Below are positions 1,788 to 64,000 of a stretch of DNA of 64,000 bases, in pieces. The notes beneath the pieces were generated by a model that worked only from the letters and a program-made list of their open reading frames with translations, did no database searches and had not been told where the DNA came from. Position 1 is the stretch's first letter. Each line of letters begins with the position of its first letter. Origin of the DNA: Amoebidium appalachense (lineage: Eukaryota; Protista; Ichthyosporea); NCBI GenBank assembly GCA_963693365.1, contig CAVNZM010000007.1, forward strand, positions 9,855,962-9,919,961, written 5' to 3'. Made by a program: the position numbers and the translations under genes.

Positions 1788-3165
1788 TTACTTGCCCACA
1801 ACCTTCATAGCCAACTCAAGCACCTCCTCACACCCCGCTGTACTCTCTAGCCACTCCACAGGGATACCATTAACCCCTGCCCGTGCACCCAAACATGCCC
1901 CAATCAAGTTTGCACGTGAGCAGTTGCACCCCCCCGCACGGATATTCTGCCTCACCGCCTCCACAAAATCGCCACCAGCAGCAAGAACACGCACGGCACT
2001 CTTGAATGAGCCGGGAATAGCACATGCCTTGCCATATCGGGCAACATCAGCAACAACTGCCTCTGTCACTGCTTGGGCCACGGAGGAGTCATCCTCTTCG
2101 TCCAACTGCTTGTCAGCCACGGCGCGTGCATCGCCTATGGCGCTCTGCATCTCAAAATAAATCTCTGGGAGAAGTGCTCTTATCTCGGCACTGATGCTTT
2201 CCAGGGGATCATCCTGGCCCAGTATATATCCTTCAACCAACATTGCCATCACACGTGTATGTTCGAGTGCCGACGGTGCAGTGGTCAGTATTGCCGCTGC
2301 TTTTTCAGCCGTGGCAAGCATGTCGTGCCTGCCTGCCCCCTTTGCAATGAACGGGAGGGCTGTGCAAAACCCATCAAATTCCATGTTCTCGGAGCTCCCT
2401 GTGGGCACCACACCGTTATCCACGTTCTCCAAATACGTGATCACACCCTTCTGAATCCAAGGCCCCTCCACCGGCCCCTTGTGTGTCTCTCTGTGTTCTG
2501 GACTGTATGCTATTTTGCGCTTTGCTAGGGCCACAGCATGGGGTGTGTCTGGGCCAAACAGAGACTTGAAGGAAGCAGCAATGGCCGTAGGGTCAAAACC
2601 ACCACAGGAGGCAAAGGCACGCAGGCTGGCCAAGACCTGTTCATTGTAGCAGCTGTGCCCACCTGTGATGCCACGGGCAGAATTAGTGGATCACCCCGCC
2701 GCCACACACACGTGTACACGTCTGCACATGCGTAAACCCTCCTCCTGATTGCTTCATTCTTTCTCGCGCTGTAACGACCTGCAGCTTCAGTCACGCCAAC
2801 ACCAAACAAAACGCACGGAAAAATTCTCCCTGCACAGCTGTCATCCGGAGACTCAGTCACTTCTCGACAACAACCCAACTTTCGTGCAGCAACCAAGCAC
2901 CCACAGTTTACAGCACCTCAACTCAAGGGCACCTACCCGTAGGCACGCTGTAGAAAGGCGACTTGTTCTCGGGCCAGAACTCGGGCTGGCTGGTGCCCAG
3001 TGTGGCCTGCAGGCTGGCCGTGTCATAGACCCAGTGGAACGGCCGCGTGGCTGCGTCCGCCACAGCCGCACCCACCAGGGCCCCGACCTGTCTCTGCTGC
3101 TGGGCGGGCAGCTGCCGCGCTGTCTCGAGGAGACTGGCTAGCGCTGCGCTGCGTGTGTGCGCCAT
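1788..3165 (-). CDS. ADP-ribosylglycohydrolase family protein (SelJ / J1-crystallin-like), 2 exons
   Basis: Exon 1 is 3165-2937 (GALVGAAVADAATRPFHWVYD...SPFY). GT-AG intron 2936-2663 with a CTAAT branch-like motif. Exon 2 is 2662-1788 (GHSCYNEQ...AVRQNIRAGGCNCSRANLIGACLGA..GIPVEW). Splice phase is consistent. Confidence 0.88.
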
Positions 3166-4771: not shown

Positions 4772-5059
4772 GGGGGAGAGAGAGAGAGGGAGAGGGGGGG
4801 GGGGGGGGGGAGGGGGGGGGGGAGAGGGAGAGAGATTAGCCTGAGGGGGCCTGTACCATAACCGACTATAAAGGAGGTGGTAGTGAGGCGGGGGGGGGGG
4901 GGGGGGGGGGGGGATAAAAGAAATGTGGACCCCTGAGAAACCTGAAGAGAGATATGATGTTTACAAAATGAGAGTAGACTAAGTATTGACAGCCTACTAG
5001 TGTCAGTAACAAAGTTTTTAGTTGGGGCCACACACACACACACACGCACACACAACACA

Positions 5060-5157
<98 letters not shown>

Positions 5158-5939
5158 TTTGCTTATCGATCTTTCTGTTGGCCTTGCTTTTGTTTTCCCT
5201 TCGTCTTGAGCTACCTCTTTTTGTTTGAGGAGGTCCGGGTGTGGGCGTTGATGGGGCTTAATAAGGGTTTTCTGTTGTTATAGGTTTTATGTGTTTGGGT
5301 GTGGAGGTACTATGAATGATAGGTGGAGGGACACGGGATATTGAGCAGACAAAAAGGGGAGGGGGGGGGGGGGGGGGGGGGGGGGTTGCTTGGCCCAGAG
5401 GTACATTTAATACCTTTGCACGGGGAGGGTGGAAACCTGAGAAGATTGGAAAAGCTCCGATGGAAGGCTTTTTTTTTGGGGGGGGGGGGGGGGGGGGGGG
5501 GGGGGAGGGAGGGGAGGGGGGGGGGGGGGGGGGGGACTCAATATTGAGGCGTGTGGACAGGTGGACAGGCAAAGGATTTTTCATAAAGAGAATAATTCAA
5601 AGGTAGGTCTGGAACAGGAATGGGGGGGGGGGGAGGGGGGAGGGGGTTGAGGGGTCAATGAGTCCCGGCTGAAGTGATGATAATTCCATGCGGCATTATG
5701 ATGGTTTAAACAATATTCTAGGCTGTGTGGTGTGTTTCTGTACTAATTTATTCAATGTATGCTGCCAATATACTTATGTATCACTCCACTCTTCCCGCAG
5801 GGGGGGGGGGGGTTGCTTCGTTTTTATTCTGACTACTTGGTTCCAGCAGAAACACTGGTTCAGAGCGATCCACAAGCAGCCCGCTGGTTTAAATCAAACT
5901 ACCGTGACCACCCGGGGGTGACTAGATCTGAAGGTATAA

Positions 5940-7935: not shown

Positions 7936-8570
7936 CACGCGGGCTAAGGGGTCGAAACTCAGACGCAATTGATGACTTGGGCCCTCCCTGAGGATGGGCT
8001 CTGCTTATGACGCATACTGTGCGCATGGCTGATGTTGCATACTTGAATGTTTGCCTTTGCATGTGTCCTGCACCATGCTTCTCATCGTGTATGCGTACTT
8101 CGTACTGTGTTCCGCATTCAACCCCCCCCTGTCTTCTTTCGGAGGTGTCCTTTCAGGACAGACCACTGTGTGGAGACATCTTTACTTCCATGCAACCGGG
8201 CATGGTTGCTCTGTGTCGTGCATCTGTAAGCACGCGTTTTTCGCTGCACTGCATTAGTTTGCACATACATCTTCACCGTTTTGCTCACCTTGCTTGCATA
8301 AGCAACCCTGCTCGTCTTTGATCAAGACGGGTTGACCTACCCAAGTTCAGTTGATGCTGCTGTCTGAGTTGGAGCGCCGTATATACCCGGGCTAAGGGGT
8401 CGAAACTCAGACGCAATTGATGACTTGGGCCCTCCCTGAGGATGGGCTCTGCTTATGACGCATACTGTGCGCATGGCTGATGTTGCATACTTGAATGTTT
8501 GCCTTTGCATGTGTCCTGCACAATGTTTCTCATCGTGTAGTTGTACTTCGTACTGTGTTCCGCATCCCCC
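7936..8570 (+). mobile_element. Non-autonomous Penelope-associated element (retrozyme-like), ~1.4 tandem copies of a 448-bp unit
   Basis: GGGCTAAGGGGTCGAAACTCAGAC... starts at both 7941 and 8389. Homologous to the pLTR (32935-33241, 38140-38445) and the 5' block (38040-38130) of the Penelope-like element. No RT coding capacity; C-runs on both flanks. Confidence 0.85.
8298..8456 (+). ncRNA. Conserved structured RNA; candidate non-circularly permuted hammerhead ribozyme
   Basis: Contains GTCTGAGT-T-GGAG (8362-8374), GGTC-GAAA-CTCAGAC (8398-8412) and CTCC-CTGAGGA-T-GGGC (8432-8447), closed by stem ATAAGCA/TGCTTAT. Stems covary against the copies at 33 kb and 38 kb. Confidence 0.55.
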
Positions 8571-9067
8571 CCCCCCCCCCCTTCCCCCCGGTGTTTTTGA
8601 AGCCTCTTGCCCTTCCCCCCCCCATCCAGCAAACGGTGGGGCCCTTTACTTTCTATTGCAGTTTTACGGGCTGGAAATCCAAGTCCATTGCACTCCAACC
8701 TCCCATCCCCCCTCCCCCCTCCCCCGCCCGAAAAAGAATTAAAAAAAACATAAAAATAGAAAAAATTAAAAAGCAAAATTCCAGACCCTGAAACAGCCCC
8801 CCCCCCCCCCCTCCCCCCCCCCCCCCCCCCCCGGCCGGCTCTCCCCCCAAGCTCCTTATTAGCTTCTTCCAATCTGGGATGTCATAACTTTGTGCTTCAC
8901 CTCGTTAGGATGAGCTGCCTGTGGTTGTGTTGCATCTGTTGCTGTTTATGCTTGCATGTGATCTTACTAATATTAGCATGTCCTATGAATTTATGCGCAG
9001 CGTTTTTTGATTGTGGTAGTAATGCACGCACTGAAACCCATCCCCCCTCTCCCCATAACCACCACCA

Positions 9068-24200: not shown

Positions 24201-26098
24201 GGTCCCGGCATTCCGACATTTTCACGTACGTGCCCTCAAGCTGTGCTACGCTCTCAGCTCGTGTCACTGGCAGCCTCCTTGGCCAGCAACTGCCAGCAAC
24301 TTGATTTTGGCGTCACGGGAACTTTGAAAGTGCCAAAGTGATGTAATCAGCAGAACGAACAAAGTAATATCAACCTTCGTTCACCGCGACTGGAACCGGT
24401 GGAACGCTATACGCACTATAAGTTGTACTGTGTCATGCCACACAATTTTCCTTCAATAGTGATCAATAAATAATAAAGTAAATGAGACTTCTGGCAAGTT
24501 CACTGGCGGCCCTGCCCTTTGCCACTTACTACTTGAACGTCCCGCGGCCTATAGCTACCGTGAGCGCACAGAGTGCCGCAGTGCGTGGGCCATCATGGGG
24601 TCATGGCAACACAGCTTTTTTTTGCAAGTTCCCGGGCCAATGTTAACATGAGTACTATAGTATGATGGCTTGATAAGTTAGTATCAGCCGCAGGCGAGAA
24701 TACTATTGCTACACGTGCACAATAATGGGCCGTGAACGACATTTCCGGCACTTTTCAATTCACTGGGGCAAACATACGTCACAGTTTTATAAATAAATAC
24801 ATACTCAGTCTGGCGCGGAGCTCCTAGCACTCATCTATTAGAATTACAACGTTGCTGCATTGTGGTAATAAAAATTGTTCAACTTAATTAGTACATATAT
24901 AGGCTAATTGCACTCAGCACAAAGTTACTGTAGGTGAAAATTGGATCTTTTACACATTGCCACTAATCCAGGAACCAGCAAAGTTTCTCCTGGAGCCATA
25001 TCATGACCTCACGTGGACCAACCGCCGCGACGCCACTGAGTGCCACGTGACATAATATACATGCATGTGCATAACATCATTGGCGGAATCCTGCCTCTCA
25101 TGATCACATGTATGATGTGGCACGGCCAGCCGATGGCACAGTGTCACGGACCGTTTTTAGACCCAAATTGATCGTTGGCACACATACGCCGATAACACAT
25201 GTTACATATGTCACCTGCGCATGCGGCCTATGATAAAGGCAGCCGGCAGCGGATCCGATATGACAAGCCACATATTCATGCATAATATATGGCAACGGAC
25301 CCAAGACTTCAGCAGTGAAACTTGTGCCAAGTTGAACTTTCACGTACATGTCATATTATATATTAAACGTACATGTTATCATAGTGCGGCCGTAGTCACT
25401 GTCAGCTGACAATCATATGATAATAAATTGGCAGTTTAATTAAACTTGTTAGGCTGTGACTGCAGGAGCCGGTGAGGGCACATACCGTCACACACGGTGG
25501 CTGACGACTCAAAGTCACTGGTCCATCTTCGTAGCACGGCCAACTAGCTGTCCAGCTGAGCTCCAGAGTCCCACTGCAGTGGCAAGGGAAATGAACATCC
25601 GATGACCGTCCTTTTTCACAATGTGACCGTGCGACGGCCGTGCCAATAACATGTACAAGATGCGACGGCCGTGCCAATAACATGTACAAGATCTAGACAT
25701 CAAGTTATAATGTTATTATTTAAAGTGATTCATCATGATCAAGTTCAGTCCGACGTCACCTTGCTGCAGTGGTCACCGTGGCGTGCACGTGACGAGCCTC
25801 TGGCGCATAAATAATTTTACCGTAAGGCTTGGTCAACTCCCCGGAAGGCCCAGGGTTTCTTGAGTCGACTCACCGTTGTCACCCCTATTATATATGCATT
25901 TTGTTTCAACGGTAGGCCTGGAGATGCCTAGGCCTTGCGGCGGCCCGTGCTGCGCGCGGTGCACAAATGTACACGTGTCCCACAAGTGCGTGCCACCGTG
26001 ACACTAGTACGTACACCGTGGCACACACACACACACACACACACAAGCCTTACACACACACACACATACACGTACATCACACACACACACGCACACAC

Positions 26099-28002: not shown

Positions 28003-41845
<13,843 letters not shown>

Positions 41846-47972: not shown

Positions 47973-48514
47973 CACCGAAGGCCGCATTTGTCATCATTAT
48001 TCCACTTCCCATCCCCTGGTACGGGGTGATAGTGTCAGCCAAACTGCGGCCAGTTTTAATAAAATTGTCCAACAAAATCACACAAGCTTTTCCCACGAAT
48101 ACACATTCTTGGCCTGAGTCGATGTACTCGACACTGCTACTGTCCTTTTTTGCGAATTACCAAATTTTACACACCCTATTAAATCCAATACTCGTGAAGT
48201 GATAACTAGCTAGTGGGCGGGCTGCTAATGAAGTTTTCTCGGATGTGTTGTCTCGATCGCGAGCCCACTCCCCCATCCCGTGTAATTACTTTGATAGACA
48301 GAACTAGCAGCAAGATTCCTTTTGAGCTCGTGTCCACTGTGGCACCCAGCTCCATTTTCTCACATACTTTAGGTCCGTACACGTACTAGTCATTTTAACC
48401 ATGATAGCTCTTTATAAAGCTTTGATAAACTCAAATGGAGCCCAAGTGGTGACTGTGTGCATGTAACTGCAGTTAGCTAAACAGCACCAGTTCATAGCCA
48501 CACACATAAACACC

Positions 48515-49531
48515 ATGGTCAGACTCAATGGCCAATACGACCCATGGCTTGGGGGCACTGACAGCACTTTGGAGCAATATGAAACCGCAGCGGGCCAGGG
48601 TGTTAGCAGGCAGCAGATGCAACTTCTTCTCAACAACCCAAACATATTTCTGTGCCCCAACAACGACATCAGAGTCAAGCAGGAATATCCAACCACCGTC
48701 AACGTGTGCACGCAGTACCAGGGCCAGTCACCCCTGACACCCATTACACCCAGCATGCTGCAACCACCAAACTCCGTCGCCGCCTCACCTGCACCATCTG
48801 TGGACCTTGCCTCGTGGTCTGGGGTTATGGGCGCCGGTGACCTTGGGTTCGGGAGCTTAGAAACACCAATTTTCTCGGAAGGTGCACTCGAGGAAGCAGA
48901 TGCTGCTATTCTTAGTCTCCTGAAAGAGCTTGAAGGCAACCCAAATTCCCTTTTGAGCCTGCCCACGTCTATGGCGGCCCCACCTGCGCTTCCTTCCGCT
49001 CCAAAGATTGACGTCAGCCAAGCATCCTCGTTTGCAAGCACAGGCACACCCGGCTCATCACGTTGTGTTTCTCCGAACCCACCGTTTTTCGGCAACTGCA
49101 TGCAGCCCTTTTCAACCAGGCCGTCGGAAGATAAACCCTCGACGCTTCTGTGCACAACACCTCCTGCTACCCCAACCATTTCGATCGCCCACAATAATGG
49201 CTCCGGCCCTCAGGTGAAGTTCGAAGCAGGAAGCAGGCAGGAAGAAAGCGATGGCCCCGTCAGCGACATGGACCAATCAAATGGCAGCCATCGGGAATGC
49301 AGCAACTGCCACACCACCGAGACCACCATGTGGAGGCGCCACCCAATCAACGGCTACCTGTGCAACCCATGCGGGGCCTATCTGCGCGCACACGGCAGTA
49401 ACCGCCCAATCAAACCTCCCGAGGACCCCGTGGCAACAGCGGATGCCCTGCGATGTGAAAATTGCCAGGTGTGTGTTCATACTTTTTAATTTGATGATAT
49501 GCTCTGGAGGACGGTGGGTGTGAGAGGGCGA

Positions 49532-53419: not shown

Positions 53420-64000
<10,581 letters not shown>

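Follow-up and report, generated by a model that had tools for sequence, protein, structure and literature searches.

A 64,000-nucleotide stretch of the genome of Amoebidium appalachense, a protist closely related to animals (PMC11244446), was analysed (contig CAVNZM010000007.1, positions 9,855,962 to 9,919,961 of the forward strand; this whole stretch is called the window, and positions are counted from its first letter). At the end of a Penelope-like element (PLE) of putative Chlamys grade, and in the non-coding partner of this element, the window contains what is, judged from sequence comparison and fold modelling, likely a self-cleaving hammerhead ribozyme. Its conserved strands follow each other in the order S-G-C, the core is predicted to be open between A9 and G10.1, and stem II would be formed with a fourth strand located upstream of the other three.

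Core strands and the proposed stem II

The initial annotation had proposed three hammerhead core strands in the non-autonomous element, and all of them were located in a direct check of the sequence (plus strand). The cleavage-site block S (8361-8374) consists of the 3' strand of stem III, with GTCTGAGT at 8362-8369 and U16.1 at 8369, followed by U17 at 8370 and the stem I strand GGAG at 8371-8374. Block G (8397-8413) contains GGTC-GAAA-CTCAGAC at 8398-8412 and thereby provides the 3' strand of stem II, G12-A13-A14-A15.1 at 8402-8405 and the 5' strand of stem III. Block C (8432-8443) comprises the second stem I strand (8432-8435), C3 to A9 (8436-8442) and one unpaired U; with its tail it reads CTCC-CTGAGGA-T-GGGC (8432-8447). 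The core bases C3, U4, G5, A6, N7, G8 and A9, G12, A13 and A14, the A15.1-U16.1 pair and H17 are complete at 8436-8442, 8402-8405 and 8369-8370. They are also complete in a copy on the minus strand of the autonomous element (33k copy, 33011-33183), in which C3 is found at 33041 and the cut is predicted after 33103. The linker between S and G (8375-8396) is variable and contains a self-complementary stretch of 8 nt, or of 10-12 nt in the copies at 33, 38 and 61 kb, the sequence of which differs between the two families, i.e., the partner family and the autonomous family. Along the RNA, the cleavage site is followed by the GAAA strand and then by the CUGANGA strand, an order designated type SGC in the naming of Eckert 2023 (PMC10085705); it is none of the cyclic orders of hammerhead types I-III (CGS, GSC, SCG).

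Three further copies are present in the window. The 5'-truncated repeat at 7937-8129 is without the cleavage-site block. The two core variants that had been annotated at 38 and 61 kb were both found there: in the copy at 38216-38388 (minus strand) the core is changed to CTGAAAA, and a 5'-truncated non-autonomous copy at 60883-61097 (minus strand), which is without the upstream strand, has CAAAAC in its G block and thus a changed G12.

A descriptor covering all six block orders was run on the whole window, with 100 block-shuffled windows as controls. It returned three matches, namely SGC at 8436 (score 36), SGC at 33041 (score 32) and a weak, unrelated SCG match at 25501 (score 22), which confirms the annotated non-circular order. 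In the shuffled windows, matches of any order with a score of at least 32 occurred at 0.01 per window, and a score of 36 was never reached. As a negative control, 120 viral loci were used that had been selected by a G-plus-C pattern scan for having G and C blocks; five of them contained an SGC match with a score of at least 22, the top score being 30, and no reverse transcriptase (RT) relative of the element was found in the viral collection. The claim that an ordinary hammerhead is missing also held, since Rfam scans returned nothing at gathering score across the window and no hammerhead at E values up to 10 in 8200-8600. With a second descriptor, written for the four-strand layout, the intact copies scored 83 and 79, and 100 shuffled windows gave three matches with a maximum of 50. 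When the upstream strand alone was shuffled, none of 2000 shuffles reached the observed score in either copy.

Next to the core, stem I has 3-4 bp, stem III 9-13 bp and stem II, with the upstream strand as partner, 5-6 bp. Stems I and III can both form as annotated, and the scripted covariation comparison, which covered two families, revealed two-sided changes in stem I (A-U/G-C), stem III (G-C/A-U), stem II (C-G/U-A) and the arm helix P3b (A-U/U.G). In the initial annotation, stem II had been built from the tail of the CUGANGA strand and described as poor; this weakness was borne out, as the tail offers G-C, G.U and then a G.G mismatch. The tail itself was abandoned as a stem II strand, because the upstream strand at 8334-8338 (plus strand; G10.1 = 8334) pairs with 8397-8401 over 5-6 bp, covaries and has the better duplex energy (-6.5 and -6.7 kcal/mol, against -3.5 and -2.2 kcal/mol for the tail). 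This pairing starts with the canonical G10.1-C11.1 pair directly before GAAA. The upstream strand, GACCT, had been regarded as a mere competitor or switch, a view at odds with its two-sided change, its position in a conserved block (8288-8349, 58 of 62 positions identical between the families, compared with 9-10 of 21 in the S-G linker) and its recurrence in Naiad consensi read by eye. Most likely, stem II is in fact the helix of 8334-8338 with 8397-8401, and the weakness of a 2-bp stem II vanishes if the domain is extended upstream. The GGGCCC/GGGCTC hairpin, which had also been listed as a competing structure, is probably outside the active fold, since C runs located upstream are the predicted partners of its G runs.

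Position 5 of stem II is C-G in the partner family, in which 8338 is C in nearly all of the depth, and U-A in the autonomous family. In the latter, a minority of the depth carries C at 33134 and G at 33080, at matching shares of ~3-5% in three runs; these variants are unphased, and the one at 33134 may include some cross-mapped partner contigs. The variant data consist of contigs from four runs for each repeat form, which cannot show RNA ends. Summed depth was very high for both repeat forms in public runs, depth not being equal to copy number. None of the 12 variant rows of at least 3% affects a catalytic-core base.

Predicted fold and docking

The region common to the non-autonomous element and the pseudo-long terminal repeat (pLTR) of the autonomous element spans 8288-8466, and the whole predicted ribozyme domain 8297-8457 (plus strand). 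Folding predicts a nested scaffold in which helix P0 (8297-8304 with 8450-8457; pair probabilities 0.9-1.0) closes the domain and encloses a hairpin, H0, and a long arm consisting of P3b and stem III. The 5' strand of P0 continues into P0b (5' strands together 8297-8308; P0b 8306-8308 with 8444-8446), and both helices are predicted to capture the tail that leaves A9; the pair probability of P0b is just 0.36 in the nested fold. H0 (8310-8332, 8-9 bp, pair probabilities 0.84-1.0) carries a palindromic loop at 8318-8325, and P3b is formed by 8340-8345 and 8424-8429 (0.58-1.0). The scaffold is the minimum-energy fold for the 8k copy in the non-autonomous element and the 38k copy. Two other arrangements were rejected. 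An upstream CTGA at 8318-8321 was considered as part of a split catalytic core; this site is located in the H0 loop, and one base is T in 57-70% of the depth. A cyclic hammerhead assembled from three copies across tandem repeats was dismissed because of the internal pairing within each single unit.

The apical loop of the arm holds the cut site, a stem I strand and the GAAA strand. Docking of this loop onto the basal junction would allow stems I and II to form and would produce a normal catalytic core, from which P0 and H0 would branch off at the A9/G10.1 link. The chain would thus leave A9 into P0b and P0 and re-enter through H0 into stem II, A9 not being joined to G10.1. Cleavage is expected between 8370 and 8371, leaving a 2',3'-cyclic phosphate and a 5'-OH; the annotated cut position after U8370 is kept as a prediction from sequence. 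Its likely role would be the cutting of tandem read-through transcripts to unit length, which is 448 nt for the partner.

Docking between two copies arranged head to tail is slightly favoured over docking within one. In A-form RNA, each pair accounts for ~2.8 angstrom and each single-stranded base for up to ~6-7 angstrom. With these values, the chain would have to span ~50-65 angstrom between the distal ends of stems II and III for docking within one molecule, which would require a U-turn and the opening of some of the pairs predicted in the arm; several Naiad versions have, by eye, no spare bases on one arm strand. Two-copy docking would need no melting and would tolerate any arm length. The dimer is favoured because of these demands on docking in cis and because the partial tandem places two copies in one transcript; alternatively, a few frayed pairs in a monomer could still permit docking in cis. 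A dimer would also agree with the differing lengths of the arm, with the partial-tandem arrangement, with the palindromic loops, a feature recognised only afterwards, and with the dimer model of Penelope, whose hammerheads are reported to act as dimers in tandem repeats (PMC4209133, PMC6765202).

The carrier element, its partner and their relatives

The non-autonomous element (7937-8577, plus strand) is a partial tandem of the 448-nt unit, in which the 5'-truncated repeat 7937-8129 is followed by a full unit and C runs are found at the flanks; 7937-8129 matches 8385-8577 at 95%. Its segment 8092-8219 matches the 5' region of the autonomous element at 85%, and the non-coding partner is composed of this 5' region and the pLTR. 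The autonomous element is located at ~32.9-38.4 kb on the minus strand and has 307-nt direct repeats as pLTRs: the 3' pLTR (32935-33241) contains the intact-core ribozyme copy, and the 5' pLTR (38140-38446) is 96.7% identical and has a mutated ribozyme core. Between the pLTRs lies a broken open reading frame (ORF; 34641-37837, minus strand) with GIY-YIG, CxC, DKA and RT, which is interrupted by several frameshifts and by one stop within the endonuclease region. The element shows features of a PLE with an N-terminal endonuclease, i.e., GIY-YIG before RT, CxC, DKA, partial-tandem pLTRs and C-run insertion flanks, and this domain order is that of Naiad and Chlamys (PMC8557442). The shared region, the repeats and the ORF domains thus bear out the annotated link to a PLE and its non-autonomous partner. 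Pfam missed all five ORF fragments of the element among the 16 proteins scanned.

An intact relative (P0004/P0124) from the transcriptome of Amoebidium parasiticum is 99% identical across a 200-residue RT fragment. The Cys-rich zinc finger that precedes GIY-YIG in Naiad is absent from both P0004 and P0124 and present in eight of 21 other long relatives. In an RT tree (FastTree, 51 rows), the window family falls outside the clade containing the zinc-finger rows, which has a support of 99%, and belongs to a weak (77) unresolved group with proteins of Mesostigma and Ceratopteris, its best named relatives at 40-41% identity. The carrier is classed as a putative Chlamys-grade PLE because it is without the Naiad zinc finger and is found outside the supported Naiad clade, in this weak unresolved group.

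Several other observations were made in the window. At 36685-36781 (minus strand), the autonomous ORF contains an in-frame stretch of 41 nt that corresponds to the 3' end of the partner and is bordered by 28-nt direct repeats (27 of 28 identical); it resembles a 5'-truncated insertion that duplicated its target site. Between the end of the RT similarity and the 3' pLTR, ~1.4 kb (33245-34640, minus strand) are interrupted by C, T and CT runs, and the last residues of the intact protein were not found past 34641. Inside the pLTR, at 33064-33074, one joint was seen in two runs, with short repeated telomere-like letters between its sides. Host-gene exons at 167-880, 1788-2690 (minus strand), 40419-41438 (minus strand) and 48467-49489 gave Pfam matches to an APH phosphotransferase, an ADP-ribosylglycohydrolase, an RNase_T exonuclease and a GATA zinc finger, and a 76-nt direct repeat (95% identical) is present at 41479-41644.

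For comparison, a set of 97 RT-bearing loci in 47 clusters was compiled. Plus-strand SGC motifs with a score of at least 26 were found in 16 of the 97 loci, compared with 0.2 SGC matches per shuffled pass. These 16 loci are part of one family of 27 loci (L016 family), which has an RT identity of 34-41%, is sister to the Ceratopteris protein and carries the motif ~240 nt behind the RT. Another locus, L050, has two SGC motifs, of which one lies in the 3' end of L050 itself and the other, in opposite orientation, in a neighbouring stretch flanked by repeats. Both of them, like the motif of the L016 family, are plain SGC, with a stem II of 1-3 bp and a helix enclosing block C; the two families are distant and come from metagenomes. 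In the clusters with at least 800 nt of downstream sequence, the motif was present in just two of 12 and not found in the other ten. Rfam scans of 20 of the 97 loci returned no hammerhead; the sole matches were two selenocysteine insertion sequence (SECIS) elements in L083 (1979-2041 and 5764-5826). They lie within tandem Naiad-clade elements on a contig filed as a bacterial metagenome-assembled genome, which is likely animal DNA in a bacterial bin. The repeat-flanked stretch of L050 (4815-6054, ~1.1 kb) is located by a TA run and adjoins a Chlamys-type element; it is possibly another non-autonomous element, and its minus-strand motif (~5040-5165) is the best-paired plain SGC observed (stems of 5/3/10 bp). 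In the L016 family, the strand before GAAA has three candidate partners, i.e., the block C tail, the S-G linker and an upstream strand, and this family may represent a transition from plain SGC to the core-opened form or the reverse.

The 3' ends of 17 of 54 Naiad consensi were viewed by eye; this sample was non-random (picked by label or motif), names follow file order, and most consensus 3' ends were viewed over the last 420-600 nt. The core-opened layout was recognised in eight of the 17, from a ctenophore (Bfor), a box jellyfish (Movir-2), three corals (Amil, Aacu, Anas), an acanthocephalan (Plae) and two octopuses (Obim, Ovul). All eight share the order H0 - stem II strand - P3b - S - G - P3b - C - P0 and differ in the paired sequences. 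Five others (Nbra-2, Nbra-3, Hcon, Hpol, Smim) have an intact-core type CSG, and no permuted hammerhead was found by eye in the remaining four (Parc, Dst-3 and Movir-1; Esco is unclear). Among the Chlamys consensi (49 listed), none of the 11 3' ends viewed by eye contains a permuted hammerhead. One of the Naiad or Chlamys ends without a permuted motif has the ordinary type-I order.

Alternative readings, known systems and significance

A number of points weigh against the proposed core-opened hammerhead. The 33k copy, which has a private mismatch in stem III, folds otherwise, and the folding z-scores of the whole region are modest (-2.4 and -0.3). In the autonomous family, stem I is limited to 3 bp. 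A pair is disrupted by one (33048) of the four variants located within helices, and the copies diverge so little that the power is low. The four-strand descriptor was composed after the motif was already known. Shuffling of the upstream strand yielded some lower-scoring four-strand layout in 354 and 165 of 2000 shuffles, and the descriptor matched none of the 97 RT-bearing loci, so that the layout in other lineages rests on reading by eye. The dimer argument stands on rough distances, without a 3D model. Eckert et al. assume that block C tolerates interruption by one or two bases at most (PMC10085705), and no experimentally tested ribozyme with a break within block C was found in the literature search. 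Finally, the hammerhead of a green-anole PLE depended on protein for its cleavage, and insertion in vitro proceeded without it (PMC11167929).

The latter observation also speaks for an alternative in which the region is a conserved hammerhead-derived structure that does not cleave itself and instead serves as an RT binding or priming signal, or cleaves only when bound to protein. The region common to the partner and the autonomous element resembles a mobilisation signal, mutated-core copies exist at 38k and 61k, and the motif is missing in ten of the 12 locus clusters described above. However, all catalytic bases, which would be unneeded for pure binding, are kept in both families and, by eye, in the Naiad consensi, and the mutated cores are single genomic copies rather than common variants; this alternative is considered unlikely. 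It is improbable, too, that the RNA is a plain type-SGC hammerhead in which the CUGANGA tail supplies a stem II of 2 bp, 8427-8430 and 8446-8449 form an interaction helix, and the upstream strand switches the ribozyme off. These two helices are drawable in each of the families, type SGC of Eckert has a comparable interaction helix, the L016 family and the L050 motifs share its short stem II and enclosing helix, and the hairpin has a probability of 0.75-0.89 in the 33k copy. Against this, the tail stem II ends in a mismatch and shows no two-sided change, and the upstream strand is the better partner by ~3-4.5 kcal/mol. The interaction helix amounts to 4 drawable, invariant bp, whose bases would also serve P3b and P0b; the G runs are needed for P0b and the covarying P3b. 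By eye, no stem II can be made from the tail in the consensi of the octopuses, corals, jellyfish and ctenophore. A chance arrangement within a repeat is hardly conceivable: although the motifs are short and the finding itself was used in tuning the descriptors, the shuffle and viral controls, the two-sided changes and the repeated occurrence of sense-strand motifs behind the RT of distant families (the 16 loci mentioned above) argue otherwise.

The proposed core-opened hammerhead shares with type-SGC hammerheads (HRIMA-1 and SGC variants; PMC10085705) the S-G-C order, the core bases, stems I and III and the possibility of a one-molecule pseudoknot. In type SGC, however, block C is continuous with stem II and the interaction helix joins the ends of stems I and II, whereas here stem II is predicted to come from the upstream strand, and P0 and H0 entering at A9/G10.1 are predicted here only. 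Computationally, continuity of block C with the stem II 5' strand was not found, as the tail gives two pairs and then a mismatch, and the RNA was not filed as type SGC because this feature fails. The type-SGC RNAs come from metatranscriptomes and, as far as the available text goes, none from genomes of known organisms, in contrast to the genomic retrotransposon described here. Type CSG is likewise non-circular, and joining the ends of the present RNA through P0 would give the order C-S-G; in type CSG, however, A9 stays joined to G10.1, and the available text of PMC10085705 lists only two such sequences, both metagenomic. In vitro cleavage is reported there for both the SGC and CSG permutations. 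The canonical minimal and dimeric type-I hammerheads of PLEs (PMC4209133, PMC6765202) share the sense-strand pLTR position, the tandem context and the unpaired base after A9, and dimer activity and transcript processing are proposed for them as here; they differ in having a cyclic order and a short palindromic stem III, compared with a non-circular order and a stem III of 9-13 bp. With Naiad and Chlamys PLEs (PMC8557442), the element has in common the endonuclease-CxC-DKA-RT order, the pLTRs, the partial tandems, the (C)n insertion sites and the lack of a canonical hammerhead, whereas ichthyosporean hosts are outside the tables of that paper and the hammerhead core here stands in a layout that would escape the descriptors used there. 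Craig et al. 2021 did not detect canonical hammerheads in this clade except in two subclades and listed "core" and "half-core" cases (PMC8557442). Non-LTR retrozymes (bioRxiv 10.64898/2026.07.22.740005) also have a short, non-coding, tandem, ribozyme-bearing partner akin to the PLE pLTR; they are animal elements, and the available text describes neither a permuted ribozyme nor a Chlamys partner.

Eckert et al. counted six possible wirings, assuming that the three blocks are unbreakable, and the available text of PMC10085705 gives no validated non-circular form in a known organism. In a literature search that covered mainly openly accessible texts, no permuted or core-opened hammerhead was described for PLEs. 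A 2026 paper names variants "with additional helices"; one source cited there gives, in its available part, no description of them. What appears to be new is the non-animal host and the Chlamys-grade carrier of the core-opened layout. If a Chlamys-grade element of an ichthyosporean and Naiads of animals share this layout, it would be older than that split or would have been transferred. It can be proposed, tentatively and with rather more doubt than conviction, that a five-helix, core-opened hammerhead acting as a head-to-tail dimer is ancestral to Naiad and Chlamys, predates animals and is interconvertible with the intact-core CSG and SGC forms of other branches, that the "missing" hammerheads of the clade form a family of rearranged ribozymes, and that the core tolerates a break between A9 and G10.1. 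The predicted RNA has a length of 160 nt. A core accepting two helices at A9/G10.1 would offer a new attachment point for ribozyme engineering, and the motif would add a four-strand wiring to the kinds of hammerheads, carried by a genomic retrotransposon with a high copy number in a protist that can be cultured. It would further explain how Naiad and Chlamys elements can thrive without canonical hammerheads (PMC8557442): several of them would have hammerheads with block orders that were missed by the descriptors.
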